Part shown: positions 1,068 through 55,086 of the stretch, one piece after another
Layout of the letters: every line of letters begins with the position of its first letter
Numbering within the stretch: the stretch's first letter is position 1
DNA from: a virus
Taxonomy: Duplodnaviria; Caudoviricetes
DNA: 58,277 nucleotides
Direction: 5' to 3' (one strand)
Virus record (IMG/VR): IMGVR_UViG_3300025018_000174
Span: 1 to 58,277 of that record
Made by a program: the position numbers and the translations under genes
The notes under the pieces: model-generated
What the model saw: only the letters and a program-made list of their open reading frames with translations
What the model was told of the DNA's origin: nothing
Databases searched by the model: none

Positions 1068-3437
1068 TCAAGCAAGAGGATCATAGCCCTCCTCTACTCG
1101 GAGAGCGGCGATCTTCCTTATCTTTTCCGCCCTTTTGTTGTCCTTGCTTGTCTTGGCCCAGCCAGCCTGCGCTTCTTTGCTGCGCGCGGCTTTCCAGGCC
1201 TCAGGCATCTCGACAATATTGGTAGCAGGCTCGTCGGGCAGATCAGGCTCGCGCTCCGGCAGGTCGTCGGGGAACTCTGATCCTTCCACCTTCTCGATGG
1301 CCTTCTCCCACTCTTCCGCGGTCATGTCACGGTTGTAGACAAGGGCCCGTATCTTTCCAGGGCGGGCCGCATTTGCTTTGTGCTGGTTCAGCGACCAAAG
1401 GAACAGCCGTCCCTTAGAGGTGTGATGCTGACCCTGGTTCACTGCACGGACGGTGTTCTTGAGGAACTTGCGAGCCACTGTGGTCAAGTGACGGGAAGTC
1501 TTTGTGAGGTGCTGCGGCAGGGCATCAACAATGTCCTTCTCAGCCACAAACGTGCCATGGAACGGAGGCAGTTTGCTTTCCCACAGATAGAGCAGATGGC
1601 TTTCGACGTCGCCCAGAGAGGCTCGGCGCATATCCTCTTTCGAGCCTGTAGCAGGAGCCCGTCCACGACCATTGAAGTGCGACACGTCCCGCTTCAGCAG
1701 CCAGTCGAGGACGAAGCTAGCCCCGCCCTTTTCCTGCAGCCAGCTGAATAGCGCCTCATAGTAAGCGTCAGGCTTGGGCCGTGCAGGAGAGTTGACAATC
1801 AGATACCGGCGATCGTCGTCTTCCAGTGGAAGTGCGTCTTCGTAGTTGGTGAACCCAATGAAGATCATCACGTTCCGCAGGTAGTAAATGGAATGGAACT
1901 TCTCGTTGATCGGAATGCGAGGGTCCGCGATCATGGTCTTCATGGCGTTCATCGTGTCGAACCGCCCTTTGGCCATGAGCTCTTCCAGCACTACCAGACG
2001 GCAGTTGGCAGCCCAGTCGTTATACTGGCTCTGCACCTGATCGTTCGAGGGCCGGGCTGTATTGTGGGCACCGTAAATCTGTTCCATCACCTGACCGATG
2101 AAGGATTTACCCGTGCCTTGGAAACCTTTCACGACAAGAGCAAAGTTGGGCTTCAGCTTGGGGTGCTGAACACACCATGCCATAAAGTCAAGGGTCAGGT
2201 CATGCTCTTTGCGGTCGGGGATCAGGAAGTCCATGTGGTCAAGGAACATCGAGACGTCACCGGCCACCGGTTTCACGTCTGACGGCCTCCACAGGTTGTA
2301 GTCCTCGCCCACAAACTCCGGTTCCTCGGGCTCGTAGCAGAAGCTATGGAACTTCCGCATTGAGCGCTTGGCGGAGAAGATTTCTTGGGACAACTGGCCC
2401 TTGCCACCTTCGACCATATAGTTGAACATGGAGTTGAAGGACTTCTCATCCAACTTCAGTTGGTCGCGGCGCCTGACGAACCACTTGGGCCCGGCAACCC
2501 AGACCCACTGATCCATGATGCCGGCATAGCGTTCTTCCTGCTCGCCCTGAATAGGCGCCGGGCCTGCTTCACCCTCATCGTCCGCTTTGTCAGGGTCTCC
2601 AAAGTCATGCTCGGGCGTATCGCCACCCGGGGGAACAACGGAGGCATAGTCAAAGGCGTTCTCGACGATCTTGGCCATCTCTTCGTCTGACCACGGCGGA
2701 ATGCATCGCGGGTTGTAGTGCTCAAGCATGAGCTTGCAGGCCTTCTCGGGCGAGAGGCCTTTCTCACGGAGCACACAGGCAAGATAGAAGGTTGTCGTAT
2801 TGCCCTTCTGACCCTCGATGGCCGGCTTGGCATCAAACTTCAGATGGCTGACAGCCCATTCAATATACTGCGGTTGGTCCTGTTCAACCACCGCCTCATT
2901 GGAATGCTCCCGGGTATCCCGTCGACCTGTCGCATGCGCCACCCATTCAGGCAGCGGAGCGATCGGGACTTGGCTACCCTCAATCCAGTCGTATTCGCCT
3001 ACAGAAGTGGCAGAACCAGGCGCCAGCACATATCCGCCTGCACCGCCAGCAGAGCGAGTGTCAATTCCTGGTCCGACTTGCTCGACTGTCGTGCGAGCCA
3101 GTCCCTTAAAATACAAATGGAAACCGCCAGAAGGAGTGCGAGCCCGCAACGTTTGAGGCAAAGCTCCATGGTCAAGCTCCAGTTGGTCAAGAGAGGCCTG
3201 CCCGTTCTTACCCTTCTTCATATCCAGGTCGATAACGCAGAGCCCTGAAGGCCCGCACGCAACCCCGATATTATCATCCGGCCAGGCTTTCCACCAATTG
3301 CGGATTGTCTTTTCATCAGTGGTGGCTTCTGTGCCCCACTTTACCCTCGGTTTGTCAGTGGTGCCCTTGCGGATCGGAAATACGAACCAACCCTTTTTGG
3401 CATAGGACAAAGCGAGAGTGCCCTTGGATTGCTCCAT
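1068..3437 (-). CDS. Bifunctional primase/polymerase (Prim-Pol) fused to a DUF5906/SF3-type helicase
   Basis: GWFVFP, NIGVACG, VIDLD and RTPSGGFHLYF motifs; Walker A GFQGTGKS; start placed at the ATG with an AGGAGG RBS (ORF open to 3473). Confidence 0.9.
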   Translation of the reverse strand: MEQSKGTLALSYAKKGWFVFPIRKGTTDKPRVKWGTEATTDEKTIRNWWKAWPDDNIGVACGPSGLCVIDLDMKKGKNGQASLDQLELDHGALPQTLRARTPSGGFHLYFKGLARTTVEQVGPGIDTRSAGGAGGYVLAPGSATSVGEYDWIEGSQVPIAPLPEWVAHATGRRDTREHSNEAVVEQDQPQYIEWAVSHLKFDAKPAIEGQKGNTTTFYLACVLREKGLSPEKACKLMLEHYNPRCIPPWSDEEMAKIVENAFDYASVVPPGGDTPEHDFGDPDKADDEGEAGPAPIQGEQEERYAGIMDQWVWVAGPKWFVRRRDQLKLDEKSFNSMFNYMVEGGKGQLSQEIFSAKRSMRKFHSFCYEPEEPEFVGEDYNLWRPSDVKPVAGDVSMFLDHMDFLIPDRKEHDLTLDFMAWCVQHPKLKPNFALVVKGFQGTGKSFIGQVMEQIYGAHNTARPSNDQVQSQYNDWAANCRLVVLEELMAKGRFDTMNAMKTMIADPRIPINEKFHSIYYLRNVMIFIGFTNYEDALPLEDDDRRYLIVNSPARPKPDAYYEALFSWLQEKGGASFVLDWLLKRDVSHFNGRGRAPATGSKEDMRRASLGDVESHLLYLWESKLPPFHGTFVAEKDIVDALPQHLTKTSRHLTTVARKFLKNTVRAVNQGQHHTSKGRLFLWSLNQHKANAARPGKIRALVYNRDMTAEEWEKAIEKVEGSEFPDDLPEREPDLPDEPATNIVEMPEAWKAARSKEAQAGWAKTSKDNKRAEKIRKIAALRVEEGYDPLA

Positions 3438-3597
3438 AGGCCGCCCTCCTGAGTTCAGTCTGCCTTTCGACATTATCGCTAAGGCATTGCCCAGGATACC
3501 ATTTATGCTCCAGCTGTATCTTAAGCCGGCGCTGTCTTACCACATATCCCGCGTGCGCGCGTGTAAGACTTTGCTGGCTACCAATTCCTAGAGTGTA

Positions 3598-3628
3598 GGT
3601 TTCTCATTGAACCAAGTGGCGATATGCT
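3598..3628 (+). promoter_or_regulatory. Sigma70-like promoter
   Basis: GG-TTTCTC-N17-TATGCT. Confidence 0.55.
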
Positions 3629-3666
3629 GTAAATGTTCAAGCGCAACTGAGAGGAGCATCTCCCAC

Positions 3667-4176
3667 ATGAACACCATCGAACAGAACCTCGAACGACTGG
3701 CGACGGCGTCCGAGCGTCAAGCGGTGGCACTGGAAGCGATCCTGGAAATCCTGGGTCGTCCCATGCCGCTTTTTGAAGTCACCGGGGGTGAACCCGTGGT
3801 GACCGTCGTCAACACCGTCGAGGCCCAGGATGAAGACACCACCGCCGCTGATCCCGAGCCCGAAGCTGCTGAAGAACCCGCGGCCGAAGAGCAAGCCGCT
3901 GAAGAAGCGCAGGAAGCCGGCGAAGCCGAAGGAGACCCCCTCGGAGACGATCCCCTCGGCGACGGTAACGGCGATGCTGAAGAGCTCGTGGCCCCGAAAG
4001 ACCTGACGACCGACGTCCTGCGCGGCAAGGCCCGCGAGCTGATGGACAAGGAAGGCAAGGCCGCGGTTTTCGAGGTCCTCGCCGAGGTCGGGAAGGGCTA
4101 CAAGGCGGTCGGTGAGGTCCCGAAGGAGGAACTGGCCGAGGCGTGGCTCAAGATGGCGAAACGCCTTCAGGGCTGA
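3667..4176 (+). CDS. Acidic phage protein of the type found upstream of DUF2800/DUF2815 replication modules
   Basis: GAGGAG RBS; acidic linker with GDPLGDDPLG; helical C-terminal domain. Confidence 0.7.
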   Translation: MNTIEQNLERLATASERQAVALEAILEILGRPMPLFEVTGGEPVVTVVNTVEAQDEDTTAADPEPEAAEEPAAEEQAAEEAQEAGEAEGDPLGDDPLGDGNGDAEELVAPKDLTTDVLRGKARELMDKEGKAAVFEVLAEVGKGYKAVGEVPKEELAEAWLKMAKRLQG

Positions 4177-7337: not shown

Positions 7338-8702
7338 ATGGCTCAACACGCCAAGCTTTCGGCCTCAGGGTCGAAGCGTTGGATGTCGTGCCCCGGCTCT
7401 GTAGCAGCAGAAGCTCGGGTTCCCGGCAAACGCAAATCCTCCATCTTTGCGATGGAGGGCACGGCTGCTCACCTTCTGTGTGAGATGTATTCCTCAAAGG
7501 GCATTCACCCGCGGGACTACCACGGCTATGTGATCGACATCATCAAGGGCGACGCCTACTTCCGCGAGGACTTGGCAAATGCCACCAGCCCGATCGTGGA
7601 TCATGATGGCGACGTTATCACGGACTTGAAGGTGGATGCTTCCTTCACCGTTGACCATGATATGATCGACGCCGTGGAATACTATGTCGCCGCCGTCGAA
7701 GCCGCCAGGGCGCGGCTTGATCCGCTTGGGCGCGAGGAGTTCTCCGAGCAATGGATCGACATGACGTGGCTCCATCCGCTGCTCGGCGGGACCGGTGACT
7801 ATATCGGCGTGGAAGCTTTCGGCTGGGCTGAATTGGTCGACTACAAGCACGGGCGTGGCGTGGCAGTGGAAGTCTATGACAATTCCCAGCTGAAGATTTA
7901 CGGCACCGGGCTTCTCCACATGTTCCCTGATTGCGAAGGGGTGCGCATGACAATCGTGCAGCCCCGGAAGGAACACGAAGACGGGCCCATCCGCACAATC
8001 AAGTATACCCGCGCGGAGCTCGAGGAATTCGCCGTGGAGCTGAAGGCCGCGGCTGAGGAAACGCAGCGTTCCAATGCTGAATTCCGTGCCGGTGAGTGGT
8101 GCCAGTTCTGCTCGGCCAAGGTCTACACGGACACCAACGGCACTCTGCAGGAATGTCCGGCTATCATGGAGAAAATCCAGGAAGAAGCCGGCATGGACTT
8201 TGATGACCTTCCGCCGGAAGGCGCTCTGCCGGTGCCGACCAAAATCCGCGACTTGGCGCGGCTTGCTGAATGGGCGCCACTGCTTGACGGCTTCGTGAAG
8301 GCTGTGGACACGGCAATCCAGGAAGAGCTGATGGCGGGACGTCCGGTGGCGGGCTTCAAGCTGGTGCGCAAGCGTGCCAACAGGAAGTTCATGAAGGAAG
8401 TCAAGGAGGTTGATGAGCTGACTGGCGTTGAAGAAACCCGGCTGGTGGTCCTTGAAGACGACGAAGTCGTGAAGGAGATGAAGAAGGCCGGCATCAACAA
8501 GACCGACTGCTTCCAGCCGGCAAAGCTCAAGTCTCCTGCTCAGATGGAGAAGCTTGGAGCCGCGGCGAAAAAGCATGTGAGCACCATCTCGCGGAAACCT
8601 GAGGGCGGCCTGACAGTTGCCCGGGAAAGCGATCCGCGTGAGGCTGTTGACCTGAGCACCGTGGCCGCATCGGACTTCGACGATCTGCCGGGGGACGAGT
8701 GA
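7338..8702 (+). CDS. DUF2800 Cas4-like PD-(D/E)xK exonuclease
   Basis: HAKLSASGSKRWMSCPGS, EGTAAH, GTGD, DYKHG, QLKIY and CQFC..C motifs. Confidence 0.9.
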   Translation: MAQHAKLSASGSKRWMSCPGSVAAEARVPGKRKSSIFAMEGTAAHLLCEMYSSKGIHPRDYHGYVIDIIKGDAYFREDLANATSPIVDHDGDVITDLKVDASFTVDHDMIDAVEYYVAAVEAARARLDPLGREEFSEQWIDMTWLHPLLGGTGDYIGVEAFGWAELVDYKHGRGVAVEVYDNSQLKIYGTGLLHMFPDCEGVRMTIVQPRKEHEDGPIRTIKYTRAELEEFAVELKAAAEETQRSNAEFRAGEWCQFCSAKVYTDTNGTLQECPAIMEKIQEEAGMDFDDLPPEGALPVPTKIRDLARLAEWAPLLDGFVKAVDTAIQEELMAGRPVAGFKLVRKRANRKFMKEVKEVDELTGVEETRLVVLEDDEVVKEMKKAGINKTDCFQPAKLKSPAQMEKLGAAAKKHVSTISRKPEGGLTVARESDPREAVDLSTVAASDFDDLPGDE

Positions 8703-8900: not shown

Positions 8901-8903
8901 TAC

Positions 8904-8937
8904 GCCGGTTTCCCATACAGTTCGGTCGGGGTAACCT
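8904..8937 (+). promoter_or_regulatory. Sigma70-like promoter (near-twin of 11957-11990)
   Basis: GCCGG-TTTCCC-N17-TAACCT. Confidence 0.6.
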
Positions 8938-9111
8938 GATTGAAGTCTGCAGCACAAGCAAGACCTGTGAGGTTCGTCCAGCAGGTTAATCTTAGAAAGA
9001 CTGGGTTTCATAAGCCTCCGGGCGGAACCTGAGAGCACGAGGACTGACTAAGGCTCTCACCAACATAACAGCCATCCCGATGTGGGATACAAGTGTCAAG
9101 GAGACAATTCG

Positions 9112-9696
9112 ATGGCTGAACGTCTTAAGGTGGTGACACCGCCCTTCCGTGTTTCGTTCCCCGCGGTTTTCGAACCGTCGTCCTATCAGGGTGGGGACCC
9201 GAAATACTCCGTCGTGGGGCTCTTCTACCCCGACAAGTTCACGGACGCCGACAAGAAGGCCTGGGCTTCGATGCAGGCCATCGCCGACGCGGCTTCCAAG
9301 GACAAGTTCAAGAAGGCCGTCAAGGACCTTCCGGCGAACTTCAAGAAGCCCATCCGCAGTGGCGCGGAAAAAGAACATCTCGAGGGCTACAATGTCCCTG
9401 GCTGCATGTTCGCCACCTTCTCGTCCAAGCAGCGTCCCGGCATCGTCGATCGCAACAAGCAGCCCATCCTGACCGAGGAAGACTTCTATCCCGGCTGCTG
9501 GGCGCGTGCCACGATCACGGCCTACCCCTACGACAACGTGGGCAAGGGCGTGGCGTTCGGTCTGCACAACCTGCAGAAGCTCGGCGACGACGAGAACTTC
9601 ACCGGTCGCGTGGCCGCGGAAGAAGACTTCGACGATGATGCGGATACGGTCTGGTCCGGTTCCGACATCGCCCCGAAGGACGATCCGACGGCGTGA
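9112..9696 (+). CDS. DUF2815 single-stranded DNA-binding protein (gp2.5-like)
   Basis: RVSFPAVFEP, KYS, FYPGCWAR and GVAFGLHNLQK motifs; acidic tail; AAGGAG RBS. Confidence 0.88.
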   Translation: MAERLKVVTPPFRVSFPAVFEPSSYQGGDPKYSVVGLFYPDKFTDADKKAWASMQAIADAASKDKFKKAVKDLPANFKKPIRSGAEKEHLEGYNVPGCMFATFSSKQRPGIVDRNKQPILTEEDFYPGCWARATITAYPYDNVGKGVAFGLHNLQKLGDDENFTGRVAAEEDFDDDADTVWSGSDIAPKDDPTA

Positions 9697-11372: not shown

Positions 11373-11954
11373 ATGGGCGTTGAAGGCTTGGCAAATCTCG
11401 ACTATGCCAAGCTGGAAAAGCGGGTCATGGCTCAGCTGTCCGAACAAGACTGGCTGGAGCATATCATGCGGGGTCACTGCGCCCTGACTGACATGCCCTT
11501 CACCGCTCTTGGCCAGCTGACCCCGCGTGGCGCTGACGGGCCGACCTATCATGAGCTTGGTGAGTTCCTGACGGGTAATGGCACTGTGTCTCTGTTCCGC
11601 GATGCCCCGCTGAAGATCGTGGGCAACAGCTACCGTGGAGCCGAGGCACAATCTGCCCTGCGGAACAAGAACGCCAACAACCGGGTCCTGGTAATCCGCG
11701 AGCCTGCCAATCCGCATGACAAGAATGCCTTGGCTGTGTTGGTCGCTCGCGGTCGTGCCGGTCTGGGGTGTGCCAGCTCGAAGTATGACTGGGTTCATGT
11801 CGGGTATATCCCGCGTGACGTGGCTGCTCAGCTTGCCCCGAAATGGCCGCACATGCATGGCGTTCCGGTCATTGCCGAAGGCACTCTGGCCTCGGCTCCG
11901 GCCCATGAGCGCGATCCCAAGATCAAGCTCACAGGTTGGCGCTTGTATCACTGA
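11373..11954 (+). CDS. HIRAN-domain protein
   Basis: IVGNSYR, REPANPHDKNALAV and VGYIPR motifs. Confidence 0.8.
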   Translation: MGVEGLANLDYAKLEKRVMAQLSEQDWLEHIMRGHCALTDMPFTALGQLTPRGADGPTYHELGEFLTGNGTVSLFRDAPLKIVGNSYRGAEAQSALRNKNANNRVLVIREPANPHDKNALAVLVARGRAGLGCASSKYDWVHVGYIPRDVAAQLAPKWPHMHGVPVIAEGTLASAPAHERDPKIKLTGWRLYH

Positions 11955-12227: not shown

Positions 12228-14510
12228 ATGATTACTGGCGACTTCGAAACACGGTCGGCCTGTCCGATCAAGGCAGGTGCTTGGGCGTATTCCGAACACC
12301 CGTCCACGCAAATCCTGTGCTTCTGCTGGTCATATGACGATGATCCGCTCGAGGAAGTCCATGTCTGGCACCGAGCGCATCCGGCCTTTGGCATTGAGCA
12401 AAGCCCGTTCCCGCAAGAGCTTGCTGATCGTGTGGCTGCTGGTGAAATCTTCGAAGCCCACAACTCCTTCTTTGAATTCTGCATTTGGAACCATGTATTC
12501 CGCAAAGAGTGCCCCGGCCTTCCGGAGCTCAAGCTGGAAAACATGCGGTGCACTGCCGCCAAAGCTGCGTCCTTCTCACTGCCTCGTGCCCTCGAGAACG
12601 TGGTGAAAGTGCTGAAGCTGGCAGAGCAGAAAGACATGGAAGGTTCTGCGGCCATGATGCGGCTTACCAAGCCTCGCAAGCTTCGGGTCGCGGAGCGCAA
12701 GCGCCTTATCGCTGAAGGGATCAATCCTGATACCTACTGGGACTTCCCCGAGAGCGAGGAAGACATTCGGCGGAACTGGTCTTACTGCCAGCAAGACGTG
12801 CGAGCTGAAGAAGGGCTGTCCAAAGTCCTGCGTGATCTTGGCCCTGAAGAACTTGCCTACTGGCAGATGGATCAGCGGATGAATGCCCGCGGCATCTACT
12901 GTGACATGTCCGCGGTTCTCATCGCCGTGAACATGGCCACCGAAGAGCGGGATCGGCTGAACGGCATTCTCAAGGATATGACTGGCGGGTATGTGCCAAA
13001 AGGCTCCAGCCGGAAGAAGCTCGTCGAATGGGTAAACAGCCAAGGCGTGCCGCTCGAGAATACTCGCAAAGAGACACTCGACGCGCTCCTGGGGGGAGGC
13101 GGTGACGACGAGGAAGCCGACGATAGTGATGACGATACCGGTGGCACCGAGGACGCGGCAGAAGACGCAACGACCATCAATATCGAGCTTCCACCACATG
13201 TCCGTCAAGTCTTGGCCATTGCCAGGGACGTGAACCGTTCTTCCCTTGCCAAGTATCAGCAGATGATCCTCCAAGTCTCGTCGGGCAACCGCCTGCGGGA
13301 CATGATGCTTTATTGCGGAGCAAGTCGCACAGGTCGCTGGTCCGGCAAAGGCGTTCAGCCCCACAACTTCATTCGCGGCTTCTCCAAGGAAATGGAGGAA
13401 GCTTGGCAAGACATCATGATGGACGACCCCGAGGCCCTGCGCCTGCTTTGGGGCTCGGTTATGGAAGTCCTGTCCAAAGCTACTCGAGGCGCCATGACTG
13501 CCTCGCCCGGCAAAGACCTGATGGTCGCTGACTTTGCGGCCATTGAGGCTCGGGTGCTGATGTGGCTGGCAGAAGACGAAGAAGCTCTGGGCGTCTTCTA
13601 CCGGGGCGAAGACATCTACCTTGAGATGGCCACCGCTATCTTTGGGTATCCCTGCAACAAGAAAGAACACCCCTTTGAGCGCCAAGTGGGCAAGCAGGCC
13701 GTTCTCGGCCTAGGCTACCAGATGGGCGCTGAGAAGTTCATGGATACCTGTCACAAGTATCCCGAGCTGGCTCACCTGCGTCTTGACTTCCTCGAAAAGG
13801 TTGTGAAGATTTACCGCAAGGACAAGTTCCCCAATATCGTGTCCTTCTGGGATGAGCTGAACCAAGCCGTCATTCAGGCGGTGGAAGCCTATGACCCGGC
13901 AACCATGTCTCGTGGCCCGGAAATCAAGTGCCGGCGCGTGTCGTGTTTTATGTGGGGCCAGTTCCTACATATCCGGTTGCCCTCAGGGCGCCTGCTCAGC
14001 TACTTCCGGCCTCAGATCAAGACGCGGGTGTCGTGGCGCTTCCCGGCAATCCGCAACAGTGACGGCGAAAAGTCTTGGGCCTTGGCTACCGTTGACCCGG
14101 GCGTGTCCGAAGCAGTGGCCCGATCGGCCGCGGCTCGCGTGGCCAAACTGGCAGACAAGACCATGGTGCCAAATGGCCGACCGGCGGTTCATGAGAACAA
14201 GGTCATGTCCTTCTGGCTGGAAGACAGCAAGACAAGGCAGTGGACCCGCAAAGCCACCTATGGTGGCGAGCTGGTGGAAAACATCACTCAGGCTACTGCC
14301 CGCGATCTTATGGCGGCGGCAATGTATAGGGTCGATCAGCACCCCGACTATGATATTCTGCTTTCCGTGCACGACGAACTCATCGCAGAATGTGATGCGG
14401 GCACTGGTGACGTGAAGGAATTTGAAGCGCTGATGGCAGAGACGCCCGATTGGGCCGAAGGCTGTCCGGTCGCGGCAGAAGGGTGGAAAGGCAAGCGGTA
14501 TCGTAAGTGA
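12228..14510 (+). CDS. polA: Family A DNA polymerase
   Basis: DFET exo I, EAHN..FE, RTGRWS, motif A ADFAAIEARV, motif B RQVGKQAVLGLGY, motif C VHDEL. Confidence 0.95.
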   Translation: MITGDFETRSACPIKAGAWAYSEHPSTQILCFCWSYDDDPLEEVHVWHRAHPAFGIEQSPFPQELADRVAAGEIFEAHNSFFEFCIWNHVFRKECPGLPELKLENMRCTAAKAASFSLPRALENVVKVLKLAEQKDMEGSAAMMRLTKPRKLRVAERKRLIAEGINPDTYWDFPESEEDIRRNWSYCQQDVRAEEGLSKVLRDLGPEELAYWQMDQRMNARGIYCDMSAVLIAVNMATEERDRLNGILKDMTGGYVPKGSSRKKLVEWVNSQGVPLENTRKETLDALLGGGGDDEEADDSDDDTGGTEDAAEDATTINIELPPHVRQVLAIARDVNRSSLAKYQQMILQVSSGNRLRDMMLYCGASRTGRWSGKGVQPHNFIRGFSKEMEEAWQDIMMDDPEALRLLWGSVMEVLSKATRGAMTASPGKDLMVADFAAIEARVLMWLAEDEEALGVFYRGEDIYLEMATAIFGYPCNKKEHPFERQVGKQAVLGLGYQMGAEKFMDTCHKYPELAHLRLDFLEKVVKIYRKDKFPNIVSFWDELNQAVIQAVEAYDPATMSRGPEIKCRRVSCFMWGQFLHIRLPSGRLLSYFRPQIKTRVSWRFPAIRNSDGEKSWALATVDPGVSEAVARSAAARVAKLADKTMVPNGRPAVHENKVMSFWLEDSKTRQWTRKATYGGELVENITQATARDLMAAAMYRVDQHPDYDILLSVHDELIAECDAGTGDVKEFEALMAETPDWAEGCPVAAEGWKGKRYRK

Positions 14511-16003
14511 CGGATAACTGGCCAACAGTCGATCCTACCAAGCCTCGTTGGCAGCACCAGCTAAACGAGCTGAACAAGCATGCCGAGGACAAAGCCCGGG
14601 CATTGCTGTGGGGCATGCGCACCGGCAAGAGCCGGGTGGTTGTGGACAGTGCTTGCGCCCTGCGGGATGGCTTGCGCATTCGCGGAGTTCTAGTATTGGC
14701 GCCAAACGGCGTGCACATGAACTGGGTCCGCAAACAGATTGGCTTCCACACCTGGCCCTTCATGTCTACGTCTGCCATGGCCTGGAGTTCCATGCAGGCC
14801 CGGACTGATCCAGATTGGTCGTCGCGACTGGCTCAGCTTTTCAACTCCAATTCTGATCTGAAATGGTTCACCGTGAATTCGGAGAGCCTTATCATGCCCT
14901 CAGTCCAGCAAGCCATTCGGGACTTCATAAGCTCCTGCCACGGCGAAGTGCTGGCTGTGGCAGATGAAAGCGTGGATTTTCGTTCTGCTGGCTCTAAGCG
15001 TTCAAGCTTGGCGTTCTCGCTGTTCAAGCTTATGCCCTACAAGCGCATCCTTGACGGCACGGCTCTCATGAATAGCCCCTTGCATGCCTATTCCCAGTTT
15101 AGCCTTCTTGAGCCGGGAGCACTTGGCTTTGATAACTACGGGGACTTCAAAAAGCGGTATGCCGTTTTCAAGCAAGTAAAAAACTGGAAAACCAACAAGT
15201 ATTACCAAGCCCTCGATCGGTATACCAATCTTGAGGAGCTGCGTGAACGGATTGCAGAATGGTCTTCGGTGGTGCTCCGCGAGGACTGTGACGACATGCC
15301 GGACCTGCTGCCCATCACTGTTGATGTGGAAATGTCGGAGGCGCAACGCGAAGCCTATGTCAAGCTGGTGGAGCAATATCTGCTTGAGCTGGAAGACGGT
15401 GAAATCGTCGATGCCGCCGAGGGTGGAAAACGGTCTATCAAGCTCCATCAGATTGTATCCGGGTTCATCATAGACGACTATGGTGACGTCGTGAGCATTG
15501 AGGATAACCCGCCTTTGCTTCAAGAGCTCCTGCGTCAAGCCGAGGGCACTCTGCCTGGGAAGTTCATTGTATGGTGCCGGTTCCGTGAGGACATTCGACG
15601 GGTGTCCAAAGCACTTCGTGAAGCTGGGCACAAGATCGTGGAATACCACGGAGGCGTGCCTCAGGGTGAGCGGGCAGATATTGTCGACCAATTCAACAAA
15701 GACCCGGAGACAGTTGGCCTAGTGGGTCAGCCACAAGCCGGTGGGCGAGGACTTGAACTGCCGTGTGATGCCATCATCTGGTATTCTTCTACCTATGATG
15801 CCATCATTCGCAATCAGGCAAATGAGCGGGGCACAGTTATGGGTGGGCGGTCAGTCTCGATCATTACACTGGCTACCCCTGGCACCGTTCATGACGACAT
15901 AGTTGCCAGCGCCGAAGGCAAGGTTCGGGTTGGTGACTGGATTAGTGGCACTGGCCTTCGCGACCTGCTTTTGCGAGGCCTCAAACTGAGAGAAGGGAGG
16001 TGA
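14507..16003 (+). CDS. SNF2-like superfamily 2 helicase
   Basis: MRTGKS, VADES, LDGT, GGRGL and QANER motifs. Confidence 0.88.
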   Translation: MTDNWPTVDPTKPRWQHQLNELNKHAEDKARALLWGMRTGKSRVVVDSACALRDGLRIRGVLVLAPNGVHMNWVRKQIGFHTWPFMSTSAMAWSSMQARTDPDWSSRLAQLFNSNSDLKWFTVNSESLIMPSVQQAIRDFISSCHGEVLAVADESVDFRSAGSKRSSLAFSLFKLMPYKRILDGTALMNSPLHAYSQFSLLEPGALGFDNYGDFKKRYAVFKQVKNWKTNKYYQALDRYTNLEELRERIAEWSSVVLREDCDDMPDLLPITVDVEMSEAQREAYVKLVEQYLLELEDGEIVDAAEGGKRSIKLHQIVSGFIIDDYGDVVSIEDNPPLLQELLRQAEGTLPGKFIVWCRFREDIRRVSKALREAGHKIVEYHGGVPQGERADIVDQFNKDPETVGLVGQPQAGGRGLELPCDAIIWYSSTYDAIIRNQANERGTVMGGRSVSIITLATPGTVHDDIVASAEGKVRVGDWISGTGLRDLLLRGLKLREGR

Positions 16004-16200: not shown

Positions 16201-16671
16201 ATGAAATCCCTTCTGACCCTGTCCCTGCTGGGTTACCTGCCAATGATCGCCTTCGCCCCCGCCGACGCTGCTGGTTCGGGCGCCGCGGCCGCCAAGCCCG
16301 CGACCCCCGCGGCTTCGACCCAGGCCAAGCCGGCCGACGCGAAGCCCGCCGATGCCAAGGCCGACGCGAAGCCCGCCAAGGACGACAAGCCGAAAGAGCC
16401 CAAGCGCGGCATCGGCACCGTGGCCATGGAAGCGATCAAGAAGGGCGCCACCAACCAGGAAGCCCTGGCGGCCGTCCGGAAGGAATTCCCGGATGCCGAG
16501 ACCACGATGGCGTCGATCAACTGGTATCGCAACAAGCTCCGCACCGACGGCGTGAACGGCTTCGACGGCAAGCCGGTGCCCTCGGCGCGCGAACAGGCGA
16601 AGGCCGAAAAGGCCAAGGCCGAAGCGATCGCCAAGGACGGCAAGGCGCCGGCGTCCGACCCGACCGCCTGA
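16201..16671 (+). CDS. Ala/Lys/Pro-rich protein with a putative HTH domain (FPDAxTT family)
   Basis: GAGGAG RBS; AKPADA repeats; own promoter and terminator. Confidence 0.8.
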   Translation: MKSLLTLSLLGYLPMIAFAPADAAGSGAAAAKPATPAASTQAKPADAKPADAKADAKPAKDDKPKEPKRGIGTVAMEAIKKGATNQEALAAVRKEFPDAETTMASINWYRNKLRTDGVNGFDGKPVPSAREQAKAEKAKAEAIAKDGKAPASDPTA

Positions 16672-16797: not shown

Positions 16798-17826
16798 ATG
16801 TCCATGATCGAAATCAACGGCATCTCCTTCCAGCGTGCCTACTATATGCCCGTCAGCAAAGGCCGGGCCCAAGACTCCGTCGGGCGCTACGAAGTGACGG
16901 ACCCGCCGAGTTGCGGATGGTCGTCGGTCTTTATCATCCGCCCCGATGAGACCGGCAGCAAGAAGCCGTCCAAGCGCTTGACGCTGTTCTGCCCCTACAC
17001 CATGACGGCCTACCAAATCTCGCCTTTGGCCCGCGAAATCACTCAAGTGCAGCCTGAAGAGCTTACCCCCAAGCTCATCAAGAAGCTTGGGGAAATCATC
17101 CATCGCAACTGGGCCGACTACGTGAAGTTTGGGTTCCAACGCGACTATGACGTGGCTGCGCTGGTGCTCAACCGCCTTGGCCTTACGGTTCCCACCCACA
17201 TCTCTCCGGCGGCTGAGCAGCTGGAATATGACGAGGACAATGTTCCCAATCGCCATGGCAAACCTGTGGGCGAAAAGCTCTATCGGCCGGTGATGAAGTC
17301 TTCCCGCCGTGGTGAAGTGGCTCTCTTCTTCATGGAAGAAGGTCAGAAGTCCATTCGCGAAGCAATGGCCAAGTTTGACATGAGCCGGTCGGGGGTTTTG
17401 ACCCACCTCCATGGCCTCAACAAGGATCATGGCCTTGGATACGTGCTGACCGGAGACGTGGCGACCATCATGCTTCCGCCTGGGTGCACCGATCCTTTCA
17501 TCGATGAGGCTCAAGCTGCGGAAGTCGTGGCAACCACCAAGTCGGGCAAGCCGTGTCTCCCCGAAGTGACCGATCTGCCGGCGAAAGGTAAGCGGCGTGA
17601 GGTAGCTCTCATGCTTCTCGCCGAAAGGCCTCTGGCGGAAGTTGCGGAGGCTCTGGATTGCTCGGTGTCCTCTGTCCGCTCGCATCTTCACGACCTTCAC
17701 ACCAAGCATGGATTTGGCTATGAGCTCTCTCCCGACAAGTCTCGCGGCAAGCTCTTGGTTCCGACTGGCTGGGGCACTGCTCCGGCGGAAGTCGATCCGC
17801 TTGAAGACCTCGACCCACTCGCCTAA
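16798..17826 (+). CDS. Protein with two tandem winged-HTH-like repeats
   Basis: Internal duplication R.EVAL...V..HLH.L...HG.GY.L. Confidence 0.7.
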   Translation: MSMIEINGISFQRAYYMPVSKGRAQDSVGRYEVTDPPSCGWSSVFIIRPDETGSKKPSKRLTLFCPYTMTAYQISPLAREITQVQPEELTPKLIKKLGEIIHRNWADYVKFGFQRDYDVAALVLNRLGLTVPTHISPAAEQLEYDEDNVPNRHGKPVGEKLYRPVMKSSRRGEVALFFMEEGQKSIREAMAKFDMSRSGVLTHLHGLNKDHGLGYVLTGDVATIMLPPGCTDPFIDEAQAAEVVATTKSGKPCLPEVTDLPAKGKRREVALMLLAERPLAEVAEALDCSVSSVRSHLHDLHTKHGFGYELSPDKSRGKLLVPTGWGTAPAEVDPLEDLDPLA

Positions 17827-18407: not shown

Positions 18408-19547
18408 ATGACGAACAATGCTGCTGAAATCACGGGCGCTCAGCTTGATGCCGCCCTTCATTGTGCCATGACAGGGTCGTTCCCGGCGGGATACCTTGCC
18501 GCGGTGCACCGCTTCAACGAAGACCTGATCGGCTTGCCCATTCCGGAGCAGCCGACGCGTCTGCAGGAAGCTCGCAAGGAATGGGCGGCCACGGCTCTGT
18601 CCGAGGAAATCCATGAATTCATCACGGCGGAAAACCTTGCCGACGAGGCGGATGCATTGGTCGACTTGACCTACTTCGCCCTTGGCCGTCTCGTGGAAAT
18701 GGGCATCGTGCCCGGCCCGGCCTTCGAAGAAGTCCATGCTCGCAACATGGCCAAACGCCGTGGCACGCTGTCCAAGCGGCCGAACAGCTTGGGTTATGAT
18801 GCCGTGAAGCCCGAAGGCTGGACGGCCCCTGACATTGAGAAGTTCCTGGCCATCACGACCATCGATGTGCAGAAGCTCTTCGAGCAGCAGAAGGCGAACG
18901 CTCTGGCCTTGGCTGAAGAAGCGACCGCCGAGGCGCTGTCGGGCCTCGGCGTTCGGCCGAAGGTGCTCATTCTCGGACATGCTCGGCACGGCAAAGACAC
19001 GGTGGCTGAAATCCTTCGGGACCACTATGGCCTGTCCTTCGTGTCGAGCAGCCAGTTCTGCGCCGAGCGCGTCGTGTGGCCGATGGTCATGGATCACGAG
19101 AAAGCCTATGGCCATCATGTGGCCGCTGGTGAACCGGGCATGTCGGTTGACAAGCTCATGGAAGAGCTTGTGATGATGCAGCCGCTCTATGCCAACGCGG
19201 ACGACTGCTTCAAGGACCGTGGCAACTTCCGCCATGTCTGGTATTCCCTGATTGCCGCGTATTGCTGGCCCGACAAGGCTCGGCTGGCCCGCGAGATTTT
19301 CAAGGAAAACGACATCTATGTGGGCATCCGCAACTCGCGGGAATTCCACGCTGTCTACAATGCCGGCCTTGCCGACGTGGTGGTCTGGGTCGACGCCTCT
19401 GAACGGAAGGAACCGGAGAGCCCGGCCTCCTGCACGGTTGAGCCTTGGATGGCTCAGTTCGTGATCGACAACAACGGCACGCTGGAAGAGCTGGCCACCA
19501 ACGTCCACTCGCTCATGGCCGCTCTCGGCTTTGACCGCAAATCCTGA
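18408..19547 (+). CDS. Fusion of a MazG/PRA-PH-like NTP pyrophosphatase and a dNMP-kinase-like P-loop domain
   Basis: LSEEIHEF..DALVDLTYF..VHARNMAK..KPEGW, then LGHARHGKDT...IDNNGT. Confidence 0.8.
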   Translation: MTNNAAEITGAQLDAALHCAMTGSFPAGYLAAVHRFNEDLIGLPIPEQPTRLQEARKEWAATALSEEIHEFITAENLADEADALVDLTYFALGRLVEMGIVPGPAFEEVHARNMAKRRGTLSKRPNSLGYDAVKPEGWTAPDIEKFLAITTIDVQKLFEQQKANALALAEEATAEALSGLGVRPKVLILGHARHGKDTVAEILRDHYGLSFVSSSQFCAERVVWPMVMDHEKAYGHHVAAGEPGMSVDKLMEELVMMQPLYANADDCFKDRGNFRHVWYSLIAAYCWPDKARLAREIFKENDIYVGIRNSREFHAVYNAGLADVVVWVDASERKEPESPASCTVEPWMAQFVIDNNGTLEELATNVHSLMAALGFDRKS

Positions 19548-19556
19548 GGATTATCT

Positions 19557-21129: not shown

Positions 21130-21130
21130 C

Positions 21131-21655: not shown

Positions 21656-22101
21656 GCAAGATCAGTGAAAGCACTCTCTGGAACAGCGGCCTGTATCCCT
21701 CGCTTCGTAAGATGCGGGGGCTTCATGTTGGGCGGATCGAGAATGCCGTCAGCTCAGGGCTTCCGGACGTGGAAGGCTGTTATCAGGGCCACCAGTTTTG
21801 GTGGGAGCTGAAGACTGGCACACGCCCTGTCAACGCCTCGTCCAAGACCGTAGGCTGGAAAATCCGGCCAGCGCAGAAAGTCTGGCACCCGAAACGCTGG
21901 AAAGCTGGTGGTCTCAACTTCTTTCTGTTCCAGCTGGAGAGCAGGCATGACAAGCGCCTGTTTCTCATCCCTGGGTTTCATTCTCTGCGGCTTGCCGAAG
22001 GGGCCACGGAGCAACAACTTGAAGAGATGGCGTGCCTTGTTGGCCGTCCGTCTCCGGAGGCACTGGTGGAGTTCTCCATCAGCTATGAAAGGGAGAGCTG
22101 A
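21652..22101 (+). CDS. PD-(D/E)xK endonuclease (Holliday-junction resolvase/VRR-NUC-like)
   Basis: E..RIEN....GLPD......WELK...RPAQ..W...GG motif. Confidence 0.75.
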   Translation: MSKISESTLWNSGLYPSLRKMRGLHVGRIENAVSSGLPDVEGCYQGHQFWWELKTGTRPVNASSKTVGWKIRPAQKVWHPKRWKAGGLNFFLFQLESRHDKRLFLIPGFHSLRLAEGATEQQLEEMACLVGRPSPEALVEFSISYERES

Positions 22102-22430
22102 TGGACCTGAGGATCAATATTGCTGGTTCGTCATTCCGTGATGGCGCCAAGGAAGCGATCAGCAGCCTCAAGCATGGGCAAACGCTTAGGCTTGAACGCG
22201 AGCCGAAAAACCCCTATGACAAGAATGCCGTAGCCATCTACTTGGATGGCTACGTGGAAGGGCGGCGCAAGCCTCGGACAATCCAGCTTGGCTACGTGCC
22301 GCAGAAGTGGTCCGGCACGGTCTCGGCGGCTATGGACAGCAATCGCTATCACGTCTGGGCATCCAAAGTTGGAATGCTTTGGGGCGAGGTTCTGATTAAG
22401 TGGGTTGACATGTCTCTCGATCCGCTGTAA
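22101..22430 (+). CDS. HIRAN-domain protein (second copy)
   Basis: IAGSSFR, REPKNPYDKNAVAI and LGYVP motifs. Confidence 0.85.
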   Translation: MDLRINIAGSSFRDGAKEAISSLKHGQTLRLEREPKNPYDKNAVAIYLDGYVEGRRKPRTIQLGYVPQKWSGTVSAAMDSNRYHVWASKVGMLWGEVLIKWVDMSLDPL

Positions 22431-42485: not shown

Positions 42486-43064
42486 TCATGCCCTCATGAC
42501 CGTGCCACGGGCACGAAGGAACGGGCTGACAAGCAGATCAGCGTCGGGATACTGGACGAACTTGTTCGCGTCGACCAATGCAGAGCCCGATCCGACCTTG
42601 GAGGCGTTGGCCCCGGAGGTTGCAAAGTAGACCTCTTCCGTGAGCGGACCGACCTTCTCGAGCTTGCGCTGGACAGGACCCGTGCCAACCAGGGACCCGT
42701 CAGCCACCGGATAAACCACCGGAGGGATCAGCGGATTGGAGCGCGAGGCCAGGGCATACTCCGCGCAGGCACGGGCGATGGAGGTCGGCAAGCCAGTGAT
42801 GGCTTCACCCGTCTCGTCATAAAGGCCCGTGCGCGGGAATGCAAGAGCTTGGGCGGACGAAGCACGCGAGCCCTTGTAGCGGGTCCCGAAGCGCTTCTCC
42901 ATGTAGCGGGTGGCTTGCACCAGCGCCGCTTCTTTTTCCGAGTTGGAGGCCGAGGCCCAAAGGGCAGGCATCGTGACTTCGGTCCAGTAGGCATCAGCTC
43001 CCGCCACCGAAATGAAGGAGTTTGCGTTTGCCAGTCCGGTTCCGTCTTCCACGATGATTGCCAT
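42486..43064 (-). CDS. Head-tail adaptor (DnaT-like family)
   Basis: IVEDGTG.ANANS...ADAY, QALAFPR and EKVGPL motifs. Confidence 0.8.
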   Translation of the reverse strand: MAIIVEDGTGLANANSFISVAGADAYWTEVTMPALWASASNSEKEAALVQATRYMEKRFGTRYKGSRASSAQALAFPRTGLYDETGEAITGLPTSIARACAEYALASRSNPLIPPVVYPVADGSLVGTGPVQRKLEKVGPLTEEVYFATSGANASKVGSGSALVDANKFVQYPDADLLVSPFLRARGTVMRA

Positions 43065-43807
43065 AACGGCCTCTTATGCTTGGCGAGCAATCCGCCGTTT
43101 GCGGGTGTGGAAGAGCGCGGCTTGGAGCCGCGCCCTCATGGCCTTGCGGGCAAAACCGGCTGCCCGTCTCATTGGGCGATACCACGCGGGCGCCGACGAG
43201 CGGTCAGGGACATATCCAGCGGCGACTTGGTGAGGACAGCAGAGGCCCCACGGGCTTCAGCCCGCTTTTCCAGTTCGCGGCGCTGATACGCCTGGATGGC
43301 TTCGACGGCCGACATGGGCGGGAATTCCTGCTGGCGCGAGCCCTTGTAGCGGGTCCCGAAGCGCTTCTCCATGTAGCGGGTGGCTTGCACCAGCGCCGCT
43401 TCTTTTTCCGAGTTGGAGGCCGAGGCCCAAAGGGCAGGCGTCGTGACTTCGGTCCAGTAGGCATCAGCTCCCGCCACCGAAATGAAGGAGTTTGCGTTTG
43501 CCAGTCCGGTTCCGTCTTCCATGATGATTGCCATAACGGCCTCTTATGCTTGGCGAGCAATCCGCCGTTTGTGGGTGTGGAAGAGCGCGGCTTGGAGCCG
43601 CGCCCTCATGGCCTTGCGGGCAAAACCGGCTGCCCGTCTCATTGGGCGATACCACGCGGGCGCCGACGAGCGGTCAGGGACATATCCAGCGGCGACTTGG
43701 TGAGGACAGCAGAGGCCCCACGGGCTTCAGCCCGCTTTTCCAGTTCGCGGCGCTGATACGCCTGGATGGCTTCGGCGGCCGACATGGGCGGGAATTCCTG
43801 CTGGCGC
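42865..43807. repeat. 470-bp tandem duplication (42865-43337 and 43335-43807)
   Basis: Four mismatches seen, all transitions; 3-bp cgc junction overlap. Confidence 0.95.
43169..43534 (-). CDS. Chimeric ORF made by the duplication (adaptor N-terminus plus C-terminus of the upstream protein)
   Basis: MAIIMEDGTG...YKGSR joined in frame to QQEFPPMS...GIAQ. Confidence 0.6.
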   Translation of the reverse strand: MAIIMEDGTGLANANSFISVAGADAYWTEVTTPALWASASNSEKEAALVQATRYMEKRFGTRYKGSRQQEFPPMSAVEAIQAYQRRELEKRAEARGASAVLTKSPLDMSLTARRRPRGIAQ

Positions 43808-44304
43808 ATGTCACGCAGGCGGGTCACACGCTCTTCCAGGCCTTCACGGTAGGCACGAGCCTTGGCCATGTTGGCATCGAAGTCGATGATCTCGTTTTCC
43901 AGCTGTTCGATCTTGGCGTCCAGCGCAGCCTTGCGCTCGTCCGGATCGGTCTCGGCGGCTTCGAAGTCATTGCCTTCATCGGTCACCGACGCATTGCCTT
44001 TGGGCGGCTGCACCGAGCCGGGGGACAGCGGATCGACCGAGGCAGCACCGTCACCGAGCGGATCGTCTTCATCGTCCGTGGGGCCAGCGGTCTCTTCGTC
44101 GCGGGCCTCGTCGACCACAGACTGAGCCACCCCGCGGGTGAACTCCGGCGCGGCGTTGGTGATGTCTTTGCGGGACACAGCCGAGCCCACCATGGCTTCG
44201 ACGGCGTCGAGGCGGGGCAGACCGTCGGTGGTCCAGTGTTCATCATTGGCCGGGTCCAGCTTTGCCAGAGCCGCCTTGATGTCGTCAGCGGAAACTTTTG
44301 CCAT
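43639..44304 (-). CDS. Hypothetical head-region protein, acidic/coiled-coil
   Basis: LDPANDEHWT.DGLP motif; GAGGAG RBS. Confidence 0.8.
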   Translation of the reverse strand: MAKVSADDIKAALAKLDPANDEHWTTDGLPRLDAVEAMVGSAVSRKDITNAAPEFTRGVAQSVVDEARDEETAGPTDDEDDPLGDGAASVDPLSPGSVQPPKGNASVTDEGNDFEAAETDPDERKAALDAKIEQLENEIIDFDANMAKARAYREGLEERVTRLRDMRQQEFPPMSAAEAIQAYQRRELEKRAEARGASAVLTKSPLDMSLTARRRPRGIAQ

Positions 44305-49631: not shown

Positions 49632-49641
49632 TTTGGTCTCC

Positions 49642-51745: not shown

Positions 51746-51941
51746 TGACCACAATCCTCTTCTTGATCCAGCCGGTCTTCGGACTGTGGACATAAATGAT
51801 GTTAGCCCATTTGTGGGCCAAGCGAAGGGCTTGGCGGTAGGTCAGGCCAACGCGAGCGGCTTTATTGGCCCCGCTGCGCCTCACAGCCCAGCCCGGATGG
51901 CGATGATAGCCGCTCCGCCATGTGAGGTGATAGTTGCTCAT
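51738..51941 (-). CDS. DUF2188-like small basic protein
   Basis: GWAVRRSGA..A......A...A.....VH...G.I pattern; ATGA overlap. Confidence 0.55.
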   Translation of the reverse strand: MSNYHLTWRSGYHRHPGWAVRRSGANKAARVGLTYRQALRLAHKWANIIYVHSPKTGWIKKRIVVNA

Positions 51942-52819
51942 GCCAGTGGGTCCAGCTCGTCATACTGATCCGGAGTTGCCGGCCCGTGGTTTTCCGGGTT
52001 CAGCGGGCTATCCTTCCAGGCGATGCCGGCCCCACGCAGCGTATGCGGCTTGGGATTGCTGCGGAGCAGGGCATCGGCAAGCTCTGCTTCCTCCTCGGGC
52101 GTCTGGCGCAAGGCCTTCTGCATCTGGGCACGCTCGAGCTTCTGCCGGACACTCGTGGTCGGAGCAGTCTTCTCGGGTTCAACCGCCGTGGCGGTGCCGT
52201 CGATGGTCTTGCCGTCCTCATTGTTTGCGAACCGAGCCGACCAATCATCTGCAGTCATGACGGCGCCGGTGATGGCCAGAACGCCACCACTGACTTCCGC
52301 TTCAATCTTGACGTTCTCCCGGAACTTGTCGGGGCGACGGGCCTTCAGCAGGAGCTCAAGCATCCGGTCACTGTAGCGGCGGATCGTGAGCGGGATGGGC
52401 TGAAGGTTGGCGTCCAGTTCCAGTTCGCCAGTTTTCGGGTCCCGCACAAAGGCCTGAATGCCCTTGTGGATGACCGGCTCTTCATATCCCCGCACACCAC
52501 GACGATCCGCCTCGTCTTCCAGCCGGTCAGCACTCAGCTCAATGGCTGCTTCCCAGGCTTCATGGAACTCGGCGACCAAAGGATTGCCATCGTCGTCTTC
52601 CCCGCCCATGTCGATGGTGTATCCCGGATACCCATCCTCGGACCGGCGCTTCCAGTAATACGCCAGCCAGGGTGTGATCCCCGTGCCAGTCCGACGCGCT
52701 GCCTCTGTGATATTCCCGCAGTCCGCCAGTTCCGCGACAAACTGCTCCAGGACTTCTTTGGAGCGCTTCTGGTTGTGAGGCGGTTTGCCTGCGTTGCTTG
52801 ACGGGCGGTGCATGGCCAT
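51938..52819 (-). CDS. terS: Terminase small subunit
   Basis: N-terminal HTH; LEDEADRR...G and YSD.ML..LLKA.RP.KF motifs. Confidence 0.85.
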   Translation of the reverse strand: MAMHRPSSNAGKPPHNQKRSKEVLEQFVAELADCGNITEAARRTGTGITPWLAYYWKRRSEDGYPGYTIDMGGEDDDGNPLVAEFHEAWEAAIELSADRLEDEADRRGVRGYEEPVIHKGIQAFVRDPKTGELELDANLQPIPLTIRRYSDRMLELLLKARRPDKFRENVKIEAEVSGGVLAITGAVMTADDWSARFANNEDGKTIDGTATAVEPEKTAPTTSVRQKLERAQMQKALRQTPEEEAELADALLRSNPKPHTLRGAGIAWKDSPLNPENHGPATPDQYDELDPLA

Positions 52820-53800: not shown

Positions 53801-53860
53801 CAAGGCAGACTGTGATAGCCTGTCTTGACAGGGCACCGTTGCCCTTTGAGGAGAACAATC

Positions 53861-54055: not shown

Positions 54056-54348
54056 CCCTCTTCCCTCGCATGGCGGAGCATCACTCGGGCTTCGACCAAT
54101 CCACTCTGCCCACCATTCCACCTGACTGGGTGGACACCTCGTGGGTGAATGACTGCTGCCCGTCTTTCGAGGTTCCGGGCAAGCCCGTTCGGGTCTGGAT
54201 TGACTACCCTGATCCGAATGACCGCGAGTTCCCCACGGATGGCCGTTTCATGGTCACCGCGATGGACGGCGATCAACTGAGCGACCTCACCCTTGTTGAC
54301 CCGACCGATGACTGGTCGGCCATTCTGGAGTATCTGACCCATGTCTGA
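54052..54348 (+). CDS. Hypothetical early protein
   Basis: ATGA overlap; W.DTSW.ND.CPSF motif. Confidence 0.7.
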   Translation: MTLFPRMAEHHSGFDQSTLPTIPPDWVDTSWVNDCCPSFEVPGKPVRVWIDYPDPNDREFPTDGRFMVTAMDGDQLSDLTLVDPTDDWSAILEYLTHV

Positions 54349-54556
54349 CCGTGTTCTTTTCACCCTGACCAAGAAGCTGGCCAATGGCAACGTGGCTACC
54401 ATCCCGTTGACCGAACGCCAGTCCAACCTGATCAGCACCCTTCTTGACTTCCACGACGGGGAGTTTGCTGACGAGGACCTCGCCGAAGCACCCTACTCGG
54501 TTGAAACCCTCGACGAGATACTGATGCTCCGCGATCACCTCGCGAAGATGCCCTGA
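54341..54556 (+). CDS. Hypothetical early protein
   Basis: GGAG RBS; overlap with the upstream gene. Confidence 0.6.
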   Translation: MSDRVLFTLTKKLANGNVATIPLTERQSNLISTLLDFHDGEFADEDLAEAPYSVETLDEILMLRDHLAKMP

Positions 54557-54681
54557 AGAAAACTTGACTAGCCCGTCGTTTTTGTGTTTACATGGGCCAG
54601 TCGATCAGCGTAACATCTATTCATGCCGACGACGAACCTACTGTCCGTCACATGGCACCAACCCTGAAAGGAAACTACACC

Positions 54682-55086
54682 ATGTCCAACCTGAGCAAAA
54701 TGACCGTCAAAGACCTCGTGGCCCTGCACAACCAGCAGCCCGGTGCCGAACAGCTGACCAGCTGGAAAGGCAAGAAAGACCTGCTGATCGAGAAGGTCAA
54801 GGAAGCCATCAAGAAGGGCCGTGGCACCGTCACGATCAAGTCGGTGTCGGTTGACCTGCTGATGGCCACCGACTTCACCGACAACGACGGCCGGGCCGTG
54901 GGCTTCTCCTACGATCACATCCTCGAGAAAGTGCTCGAGCAGTTCCCCGACGCCAACACCACGGTCAAGTGCCTCCGCTGGTATGCGACCCACCTGAACA
55001 AGGACACCAATGTCAAGATGCCCATCCGCCCGCGCAAGAAGATCGAACGGCCTGCCGCCGAAGCGGAGGCTGATCCGACGGCCTGA
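54682..55086 (+). CDS. Putative DNA-binding protein (FPDAxTT family)
   Basis: AAGGA RBS; ends DPTA; followed by a hairpin at 55094-55118. Confidence 0.8.
   Translation: MSNLSKMTVKDLVALHNQQPGAEQLTSWKGKKDLLIEKVKEAIKKGRGTVTIKSVSVDLLMATDFTDNDGRAVGFSYDHILEKVLEQFPDANTTVKCLRWYATHLNKDTNVKMPIRPRKKIERPAAEAEADPTA

Follow-up and report, generated by a model that had tools for sequence, protein, structure and literature searches.

Seven proteins of a marine roseophage genome, IMG/VR virus record IMGVR_UViG_3300025018_000174, share a tag at the extreme C-terminus; six end in D-P-(L/T)-A and the seventh, the second of two HIRAN-domain proteins (HIRAN-2), in DPL. The whole virus record, 58,277 bp long, was analysed and is referred to here as the window; its estimated completeness is 96%, its G+C content is about 59%, and on sequence comparison it is a near-complete relative of a cultured siphophage, Roseobacter phage RDJL3 (OK283305.1). 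The other carriers are a primase-helicase, a protein that binds single-stranded DNA (SSB), a tandem helix-turn-helix (HTH) protein, the small terminase subunit and two small paralogous proteins, here called 16201 and 54592 after their start positions. It is clear that the enrichment of the tag is real and far beyond chance, and D-P-(L/T)-A-COOH is probably a short linear docking peptide for one shared partner.

Genes were called with a simple codon-usage model trained on the long open reading frames (ORFs) of the window, which gave 78 genes with start codons chosen heuristically. Since C-termini depend on stop codons alone, these heuristics have no effect on the tag count, and the seven C-termini were found alike in the gene call and in a stop-to-stop ORF scan. 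All seven ends, and codons that differ between the genes, are as they had been quoted in the first-pass annotation of this DNA; the start of one carrier, placed there at 54682, is an in-frame internal ATG of ORF 54592-55086. The 78-gene proteome of 17,784 residues contains six copies of DP[LT]A and all six are C-terminal, with none internal. From composition, 0.0036 such C-termini would be expected per proteome (Poisson P ~3e-18); when four residues were drawn at random from each protein, one such terminus came up in 55 of 20,000 draws and two in none. Five related IMG/VR records (G001-G005) show the same enrichment, with 4-6 C-terminal tags each against 0-4 internal copies.

The five records have their gene order in common with the window, at 55-87% protein identity in protein-level searches, and together with the window and RDJL3 they form a set of seven genomes in which the seven tagged families have 47 orthologues. 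Loss of the tag in orthologues had been named beforehand as part of what would refute its role, and the tag withstood this check. D-P was found inside the last four residues in all 47, and 37 end exactly in DP[LT]A; the variants are DPLG, DPMA, DPLL, DPLT and DPF, with DPL for HIRAN-2. Mean pairwise identity across the seven genomes is 0.89-1.00 for D-P-x, as against 0.14-0.64 for the 16 residues upstream, and the codons of the tag vary synonymously (for Asp there are 25 GAT and 22 GAC codons, and each of the four Pro codons occurs), which agrees with the earlier statement that the conservation is that of a peptide and not of a DNA repeat. On each carrier the tip is thus shown to be kept by strong purifying selection at the level of the peptide, with the linker free to vary. 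The residue at position three is fixed by family, being T in SSB and 16201 and L in most others, a hint that affinities may be tuned. Conservation is lowest at the final position, which is occupied by A, G, L or T or is missing altogether. RDJL3, which is cultured on Roseobacter denitrificans OCh 114, has kept the tag as well, so that it can be found in a phage-host pair in culture.

Among the 120 best database matches to the SSB (52-99% identity), 91 end in DP[LMTIF]x0-2, including 74 with DP[LMT][AG] and 46 with DP[LT]A; 12 end in D[FLIM][LM]x0-2, five in xPF like bacterial SSB and 12 in other ways. As judged from these homologues the tag is the family-typical, not phage-specific, tip of T7 gp2.5/Enc34-type SSBs, and it is probably ancestral. 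The likeness to a bacterial SSB docking tail which the first-pass annotation had drawn is apt; the tag is the typical tip of the SSB family itself. A further 72 viral loci were reached with an SSB profile and have tips of the forms DDP(L/M/T)A, DDFL(D/S), DDLLG, D(L/M)FG and others; the SSB tip therefore changes between lineages. In the RDJL clade the DPxA form is found on SSB and on six other proteins. Homologues of the small terminase end in DPL[AR] in 34 of 41 cases, every match with an expectation value (E) ≤ 1e-35 being among them, and the seven most distant are without it.

The carriers, and two proteins with internal copies of the tag, are listed in Table 1.

Table 1. Carriers of the C-terminal tag and internal copies of it in the window (nucleotide positions; orthologue ends are those of the seven-genome set).
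Feature	Position	Strand	Tag	Family assignment	Orthologue ends
Primase-helicase (Prim-Pol + D5/DUF5906-type NTPase)	1068..3437	-	ends GYDPLA; tag 1071-1082, stop 1068-1070	Pfam PF09250 (E 3e-43), PF19263 (E 3e-18); PHROG 1156	DPLA 7/7; upstream 16 residues 31% identical on average
T7 gp2.5/Enc34 (DUF2815)-type SSB	9112..9696	+	ends KDDPTA; tag 9682-9693	Pfam PF10991 (E 1.4e-43); PHROG 112 'Gp2.5-like' (E 5e-49)	DPTA 6/7, DPLG 1/7
Small protein 16201, paralogue of 54592	16201..16671	+	ends ASDPTA; tag 16657-16668	PHROG 38698 and related families; no Pfam match	DPTA 6/7, DPMA 1/7
Tandem helix-turn-helix protein	16798..17826	+	ends VDPLEDLDPLA; DPLA 17812-17823, extra DPLE 17794-17805	Pfam HTH_28, HTH_5, HTH_23, Sigma70_r4_2, all weak; PHROG 11422 (E 7e-77)	LDPLA 7/7; overall identity 57-64%
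HIRAN-domain protein, second of two (HIRAN-2)	22101..22430	+	ends SLDPL; tag DPL 22419-22427	Pfam PF08797 (E 2.2e-16)	DPL 5/7, DPF 1/7, DPLA 1/7
Small terminase subunit	51938..52819	-	ends ELDPLA; tag 51941-51952	PHROG 4044 (E 4.8e-30); RDJL3 orthologue annotated putative terminase small subunit	
Small protein 54592, paralogue of 16201	54592..55086	+	ends EADPTA; tag 55072-55083	PHROG 16873, 21513 and others in common with 16201; no Pfam family	DPTA, DPLL, DPLA (x3), DPLT; upstream 16 residues just 14% identical
Two internal DPLG copies	3934..3960	+	acidic linker (GDPLGDDPLG) of clade-specific protein 3667-4176		
Internal DPLG (DDPLG) and DPL (VDPL) copies	44026..44064	-	acidic linker of head-module protein 43639-44304		

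A role in DNA transactions is backed by family assignment for five of the seven carriers. The first-pass annotation had taken all seven for DNA-handling proteins, which has this backing for the five but not for 16201 and 54592, paralogues by BLASTP (E 4e-7) that lack a Pfam family; some of the fold neighbours of 16201 in the Atlas belong to winged-helix-like families, no more than a lead. At the N-terminus of 16201 (16201-16400) a hydrophobic stretch comes first, then low-complexity repeats rich in A/K/P/D and then the conserved domain, and this segment, whose start codon is uncertain, may be signal-like or histone-like. The RDJL3 orthologue of the primase-helicase (locus L037, 7017-9353) is 62.6% identical, ends in DADPLA and is annotated as an 'integrase', which looks wrong because the window protein has Prim-Pol and DUF5906/D5-type domains. 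The other HIRAN protein of the window (11373-11954) has no tag. Internal acidic-linker copies had been pointed out in the 3667 and 43639 proteins and are indeed present. The former protein has homologues in six RDJL-clade relatives only, among 18 records compared; a homologue of the latter in one related record (G012) carries the tag at its very end (EADPLA).

Tips are shared within genomes in other lineages too. The SSB ends in VDPLA and the primase-helicase in FDPLA in two loci (L044 and L074), and the same two proteins end in DFDL and EFDL in another (L081); in L056 the SSB and an 829-residue protein both end in SDLE, and in L079 SSB and nuclease both end in DFGV. G010, a genome of 44% G+C, has DDPLA on its SSB and on a 186-residue protein, VDPTA on a 16201-like protein and IDPLS on the small terminase; four proteins of G015 end in [F/Y/P]LD, and several of G017 in DD(L/M)x. 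In 66 non-redundant loci with 1,406 ORFs, 15 ORFs were found with the tip of their own SSB (at least three of the last four residues alike), where cross-locus comparison gave an expectation of 3.6 (P ~6e-6, with relatedness uncorrected). The raw rate of DP-type tails is 26/613 ORFs in loci whose SSB has a DP tip and 13/1109 in loci whose SSB does not. Furthermore, the same tip occurs in phages from 44% to 67% G+C, and this spread therefore favours a partner that is phage-encoded or very conserved. The PD-(D/E)XK nuclease of the DUF2800 family (7338-8702) has an acidic tail of its own, with a D-F core (...SDFDDLPGDE), and homologues in most loci have a similar one; in L082 and L103 the nuclease ends in DPLA or DPLS while the SSB ends in DLFG. 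These nuclease tails could be a second tail class or the mark of a degenerate code.

The build of the tag is that of a docking motif, with a strictly terminal and invariant D-P core that stands on variable linkers of unrelated folds. In such a mechanism the SSB-type tip would be held, in the RDJL-like clade, at the ends of variable and probably flexible linkers on six further proteins, and all carriers would bind, or compete for, the same pocket on one partner. Fork proteins, the HTH regulator, a HIRAN fork-repair or remodelling factor and the initiation of packaging would then be coupled at one site; we infer, in line with the first-pass annotation, a single hub. A wider version, which we put forward tentatively and as somewhat less than an even bet, is that the tip is a genome-wide C-terminal address code in the RDJL-like roseophages and, with other tips, in many phages with a DUF2815 SSB and a family-A polymerase. 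Its one reader would be a phage-encoded 'toolbelt' without detectable homology to a clamp, visited in turn by SSB, primase-helicase, the fork-remodelling HIRAN protein, a regulator of transcription or of the origin, and small terminase.

By analogy with T7, the top-ranked candidate for the partner is the family-A DNA polymerase (12228-14510), although it is itself rather unlikely to be the right one. It is untagged and has a basic C-terminus of the form W-x-G-x-R-Y-R-K (...GKRYRK); basic polymerase ends of the R-[YL]-R-K type recur in most related loci, whatever the type of SSB tip. In a profile search against the PDB its best matches are to Pol I-type enzymes and extend over about 100 residues only, and no T7 gp5 chain is among the best 60 of 71 matches. 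Since the family-A matches cover only this length, the basic patches of the T7 enzyme cannot be mapped onto it. Prediction of a complex between the polymerase and SSB residues 150-194, with alignments of 14 and 28 rows, scored 0.00 twice and gives no answer either way. The next candidates would be the DNA-binding groove of the SSB itself, the SNF2-type helicase (14507-16003), the large terminase and a conserved host protein. Presence and absence over the 18 related records do not discriminate a reader, since primase-helicase, DUF2800 nuclease, SSB, polymerase, SNF2 helicase and the protein of PHROG 2165 are found in all or nearly all of them. A 221-residue orphan encoded between the SSB and polymerase genes was considered as the reader and ruled out, as it has homologues in just two of six clade relatives.

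Several observations weigh against one docking site shared by all carriers. In a phylogeny-controlled test, which used independent pairs on a tree of the SSB core and scored the tails in 20-kb loci as DP-type or not, covariation of DP-type tails with the SSB tip was in the same direction in 1.5 pairs and in the opposite direction in 1.7 (median p = 1), which is no significant signal. Tip sharing within genomes is well supported by the sequences, and switching in step across lineages lacks such support. A DP-type tail stands on another protein despite a different SSB tip in 13 loci, and these mixed loci may reflect a degenerate code or more than one reader. The tags of the paralogues 16201 and 54592 may, as their similarity suggests, be one inheritance, in which case there are perhaps six independent carriers and not seven. 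Lastly, the tails are not uniformly acidic: counting D/E against K/R in the last 24 residues gives 5 against 6 for the primase-helicase, 4 against 5 for 16201 and 4 against 6 for 54592, and only SSB, HTH protein and small terminase have net acidic tails. A purely electrostatic mode like that of T7 does not fit all the carriers.

Docking by C-terminal tails is known in other phages. Two T7 papers describe contacts of the acidic C-tails of the gp4 helicase-primase and of gp2.5 with basic patches of the polymerase (PMC8472574, PMC12339929), and a preprint reports that gp2.5 without its terminal Phe no longer binds polymerase (10.64898/2026.02.22.705581). The SSB of the window is likewise of the gp2.5 structural type (PF10991/PHROG 112; PMC5686142); as in T7, SSB (DDPTA) and primase-helicase (YDPLA) end alike, which is kept in 7/7 genomes with a single SSB variant, DPLG, and the SSB tail is predicted to be flexible. 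In an AlphaFold2 model of the full SSB, tail residues 161-194 are at a predicted local distance difference test (pLDDT) score of ~49-58, around 50, and no ordered tip is visible. Unlike T7, where there are two carriers, there are seven here, including small terminase, HTH and HIRAN proteins; the T7 tail is an acidic run ending in Phe, whereas the tip here is a defined D-P-(L/T)-A ending in Ala and, of the seven tails, three lack a net acidic charge; and in contrast to T7 gp5 the polymerase is only distantly related to the solved family-A enzymes.

In T4, the polymerase gp43 and the late transcription factors gp55 and gp33 have closely similar, interchangeable C-termini, which stand on divergent linkers of differing length and bind the gp45 sliding clamp (PMC2988020). 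The window resembles this in that a short C-terminal epitope on divergent linkers is common to replication proteins and regulators, with the same toolbelt logic. Unlike gp43, however, the polymerase is without the tag here, and SSB and small terminase are carriers; no sliding-clamp family was recognised in the 30 of 78 proteins that were scanned with Pfam or PHROGs. The C-terminal tail of bacterial SSB ends in ...DDDIPF. Like it, the window SSB has a tail in which a short hydrophobic tip, presumably for docking, comes after an acidic stretch and forms the free C-terminus, and five of the 120 SSB homologues even end in xPF; the arrangement is the reverse, though, with one tail and many partners in bacteria and many proteins with one tail here, and the SSB family (PF10991) and tip (DDPTA) differ. 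The first-pass annotation knew of no description of such a tag. For the tip sequence that stands, since neither the tip nor a multi-protein tail set in these phages was found described in the literature, supplementary files lying outside the search; the principle, however, is in print for T7 (PMC8472574, PMC12339929, PMC5686142) and for T4 (PMC2988020). What sets this case apart is the defined non-aromatic tip, the set of seven carriers including the small terminase, and a cultured phage-host pair.

Other explanations of the tag were weighed against docking to one partner. It is possible, but unlikely, that the tips imitate that of the SSB so as to address a network of several SSB-interacting proteins, of phage or host, rather than one reader. 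The DP-type tails beside other SSB tips in the 13 mixed loci would fit such a network, as would the second conserved tail type of the DUF2800 nuclease, with its D-F core, in the window and most loci, the bacterial-like xPF ends in the SSB family and the family-by-family conservation of L or T at position three. Nothing speaks directly against it, and it differs from the docking of all carriers to one partner just in the number of readers.

The tip could also be a C-terminal degron, by which a host AAA+ protease (ClpXP, ClpAP or Lon) would time the turnover of the seven proteins. Like ssrA degrons, the tag is a short, strictly C-terminal peptide (6/6) with a small non-polar end, and -LA and -TA are loosely ssrA-like. 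In this tag, however, D-P is invariant (47/47) and the last residue is the one that varies or is missing (the HIRAN-2 tag is DPL in 5/7), and the same families in sister lineages end in Asp (FLD, LLD, PLD), which is not known to be tolerated at the C-terminus of ClpX substrates. An abundant structural replication protein such as SSB would be an odd target for constitutive degradation, and the DPLG copies inside linkers do not suit a degron either. The first-pass annotation had offered degradation as an alternative; no positive evidence for it was found, and it is improbable.

Alternatively, there may be no hub at all, each tail being a DNA mimic that folds back on the DNA-binding surface of its own protein in auto-inhibition, as in T7 gp2.5, with the likeness of the tips due to common descent or convergence. 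DNA binding or processing is predicted for five or more of the seven carriers, and PMC5686142 describes the acidic C-terminal segment of the Enc34-type SSB as unstructured and, in crystals, as lying in the concave sheet of a neighbour, with DNA selectivity altered on its removal. Against this, four identical residues would not be called for on unrelated folds in order to mimic DNA, and conservation lies in the tip rather than in linker charge; three tails of the seven are not net acidic. We give this explanation little credence. The enrichment count and the synonymous codon variation at every tag position refute chance and also a signal in the nucleotides, for instance a terminator or translational coupling. 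The only hint of such a signal is in the small terminase gene, whose stop (GCATGA), alone among the seven, overlaps the start codon that comes next; stops of both TGA and TAA type are used.

The replication module around the carriers encodes the Prim-Pol/D5-type primase-helicase, the DUF2800 nuclease, the gp2.5/Enc34-type SSB, the family-A polymerase, the SNF2-type helicase, a ligase, the two HIRAN proteins and nucleotide-metabolism genes. The same module is found in remoter relatives, among them phages of Xanthomonas, Stenotrophomonas and Achromobacter as well as Pseudomonas phage PaMx28; relatives were found via proteins, as a megablast search of positions 1-25000 against the phage collection gave short matches only, of 73-76% identity. 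The nucleotide-metabolism block (18408-21655) has a MazG/PRA-PH-like protein, a thymidylate-synthase homologue, a dCMP deaminase and a weak RibD_C/DHFR-like match. Xanthomonas phage Xp12, whose DNA is fully substituted with 5-methylcytosine, is among the relatives reached via the HTH protein, and given this and the metabolism block, DNA modification in the window phage may be worth checking. A 149-residue protein (21652-22101) assigned to PHROG 2165, which has the label 'DNA helicase', is untagged, has no Pfam match and abuts the tagged HIRAN gene; homologues are present in 17 of the 18 related records.

A gap of 211 nt (8901-9111) lies upstream of the SSB gene. Non-coding RNAs associated with DUF2815 SSB genes are mentioned in a preprint (10.64898/2026.10.21.760695); an Rfam scan of the window at gathering thresholds returned zero matches, and hence no such RNA upstream of the SSB gene. 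In the head module, positions 43000-43299 and 43470-43769 form a direct repeat of 300 nt with 99% identity and a spacing of 470 nt, because of which the neighbouring ORFs 43169-43534 and 43639-44304 end in the same ~50 residues. Their RDJL3 counterparts do not have like ends. Either a tandem duplication took place recently or the repeat is an artefact of the assembly.

The tip, present in 91 of 120 homologues, accounts for a feature that has been conserved throughout much of a very large family of SSBs. The docking tails of T7 and T4 organise replication machines and link two or three proteins, whereas here one tip is found on seven proteins from the modules for replication, regulation, repair and packaging. 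If one reader exists, the tip would be an affinity handle by which to find it, roles for 16201, 54592 and the HTH protein would be easier to assign, and coupling of packaging initiation to the replisome would become testable. Should the toolbelt reader prove true, it would tie the onset of DNA packaging physically to replication, regulation and repair in these phages.

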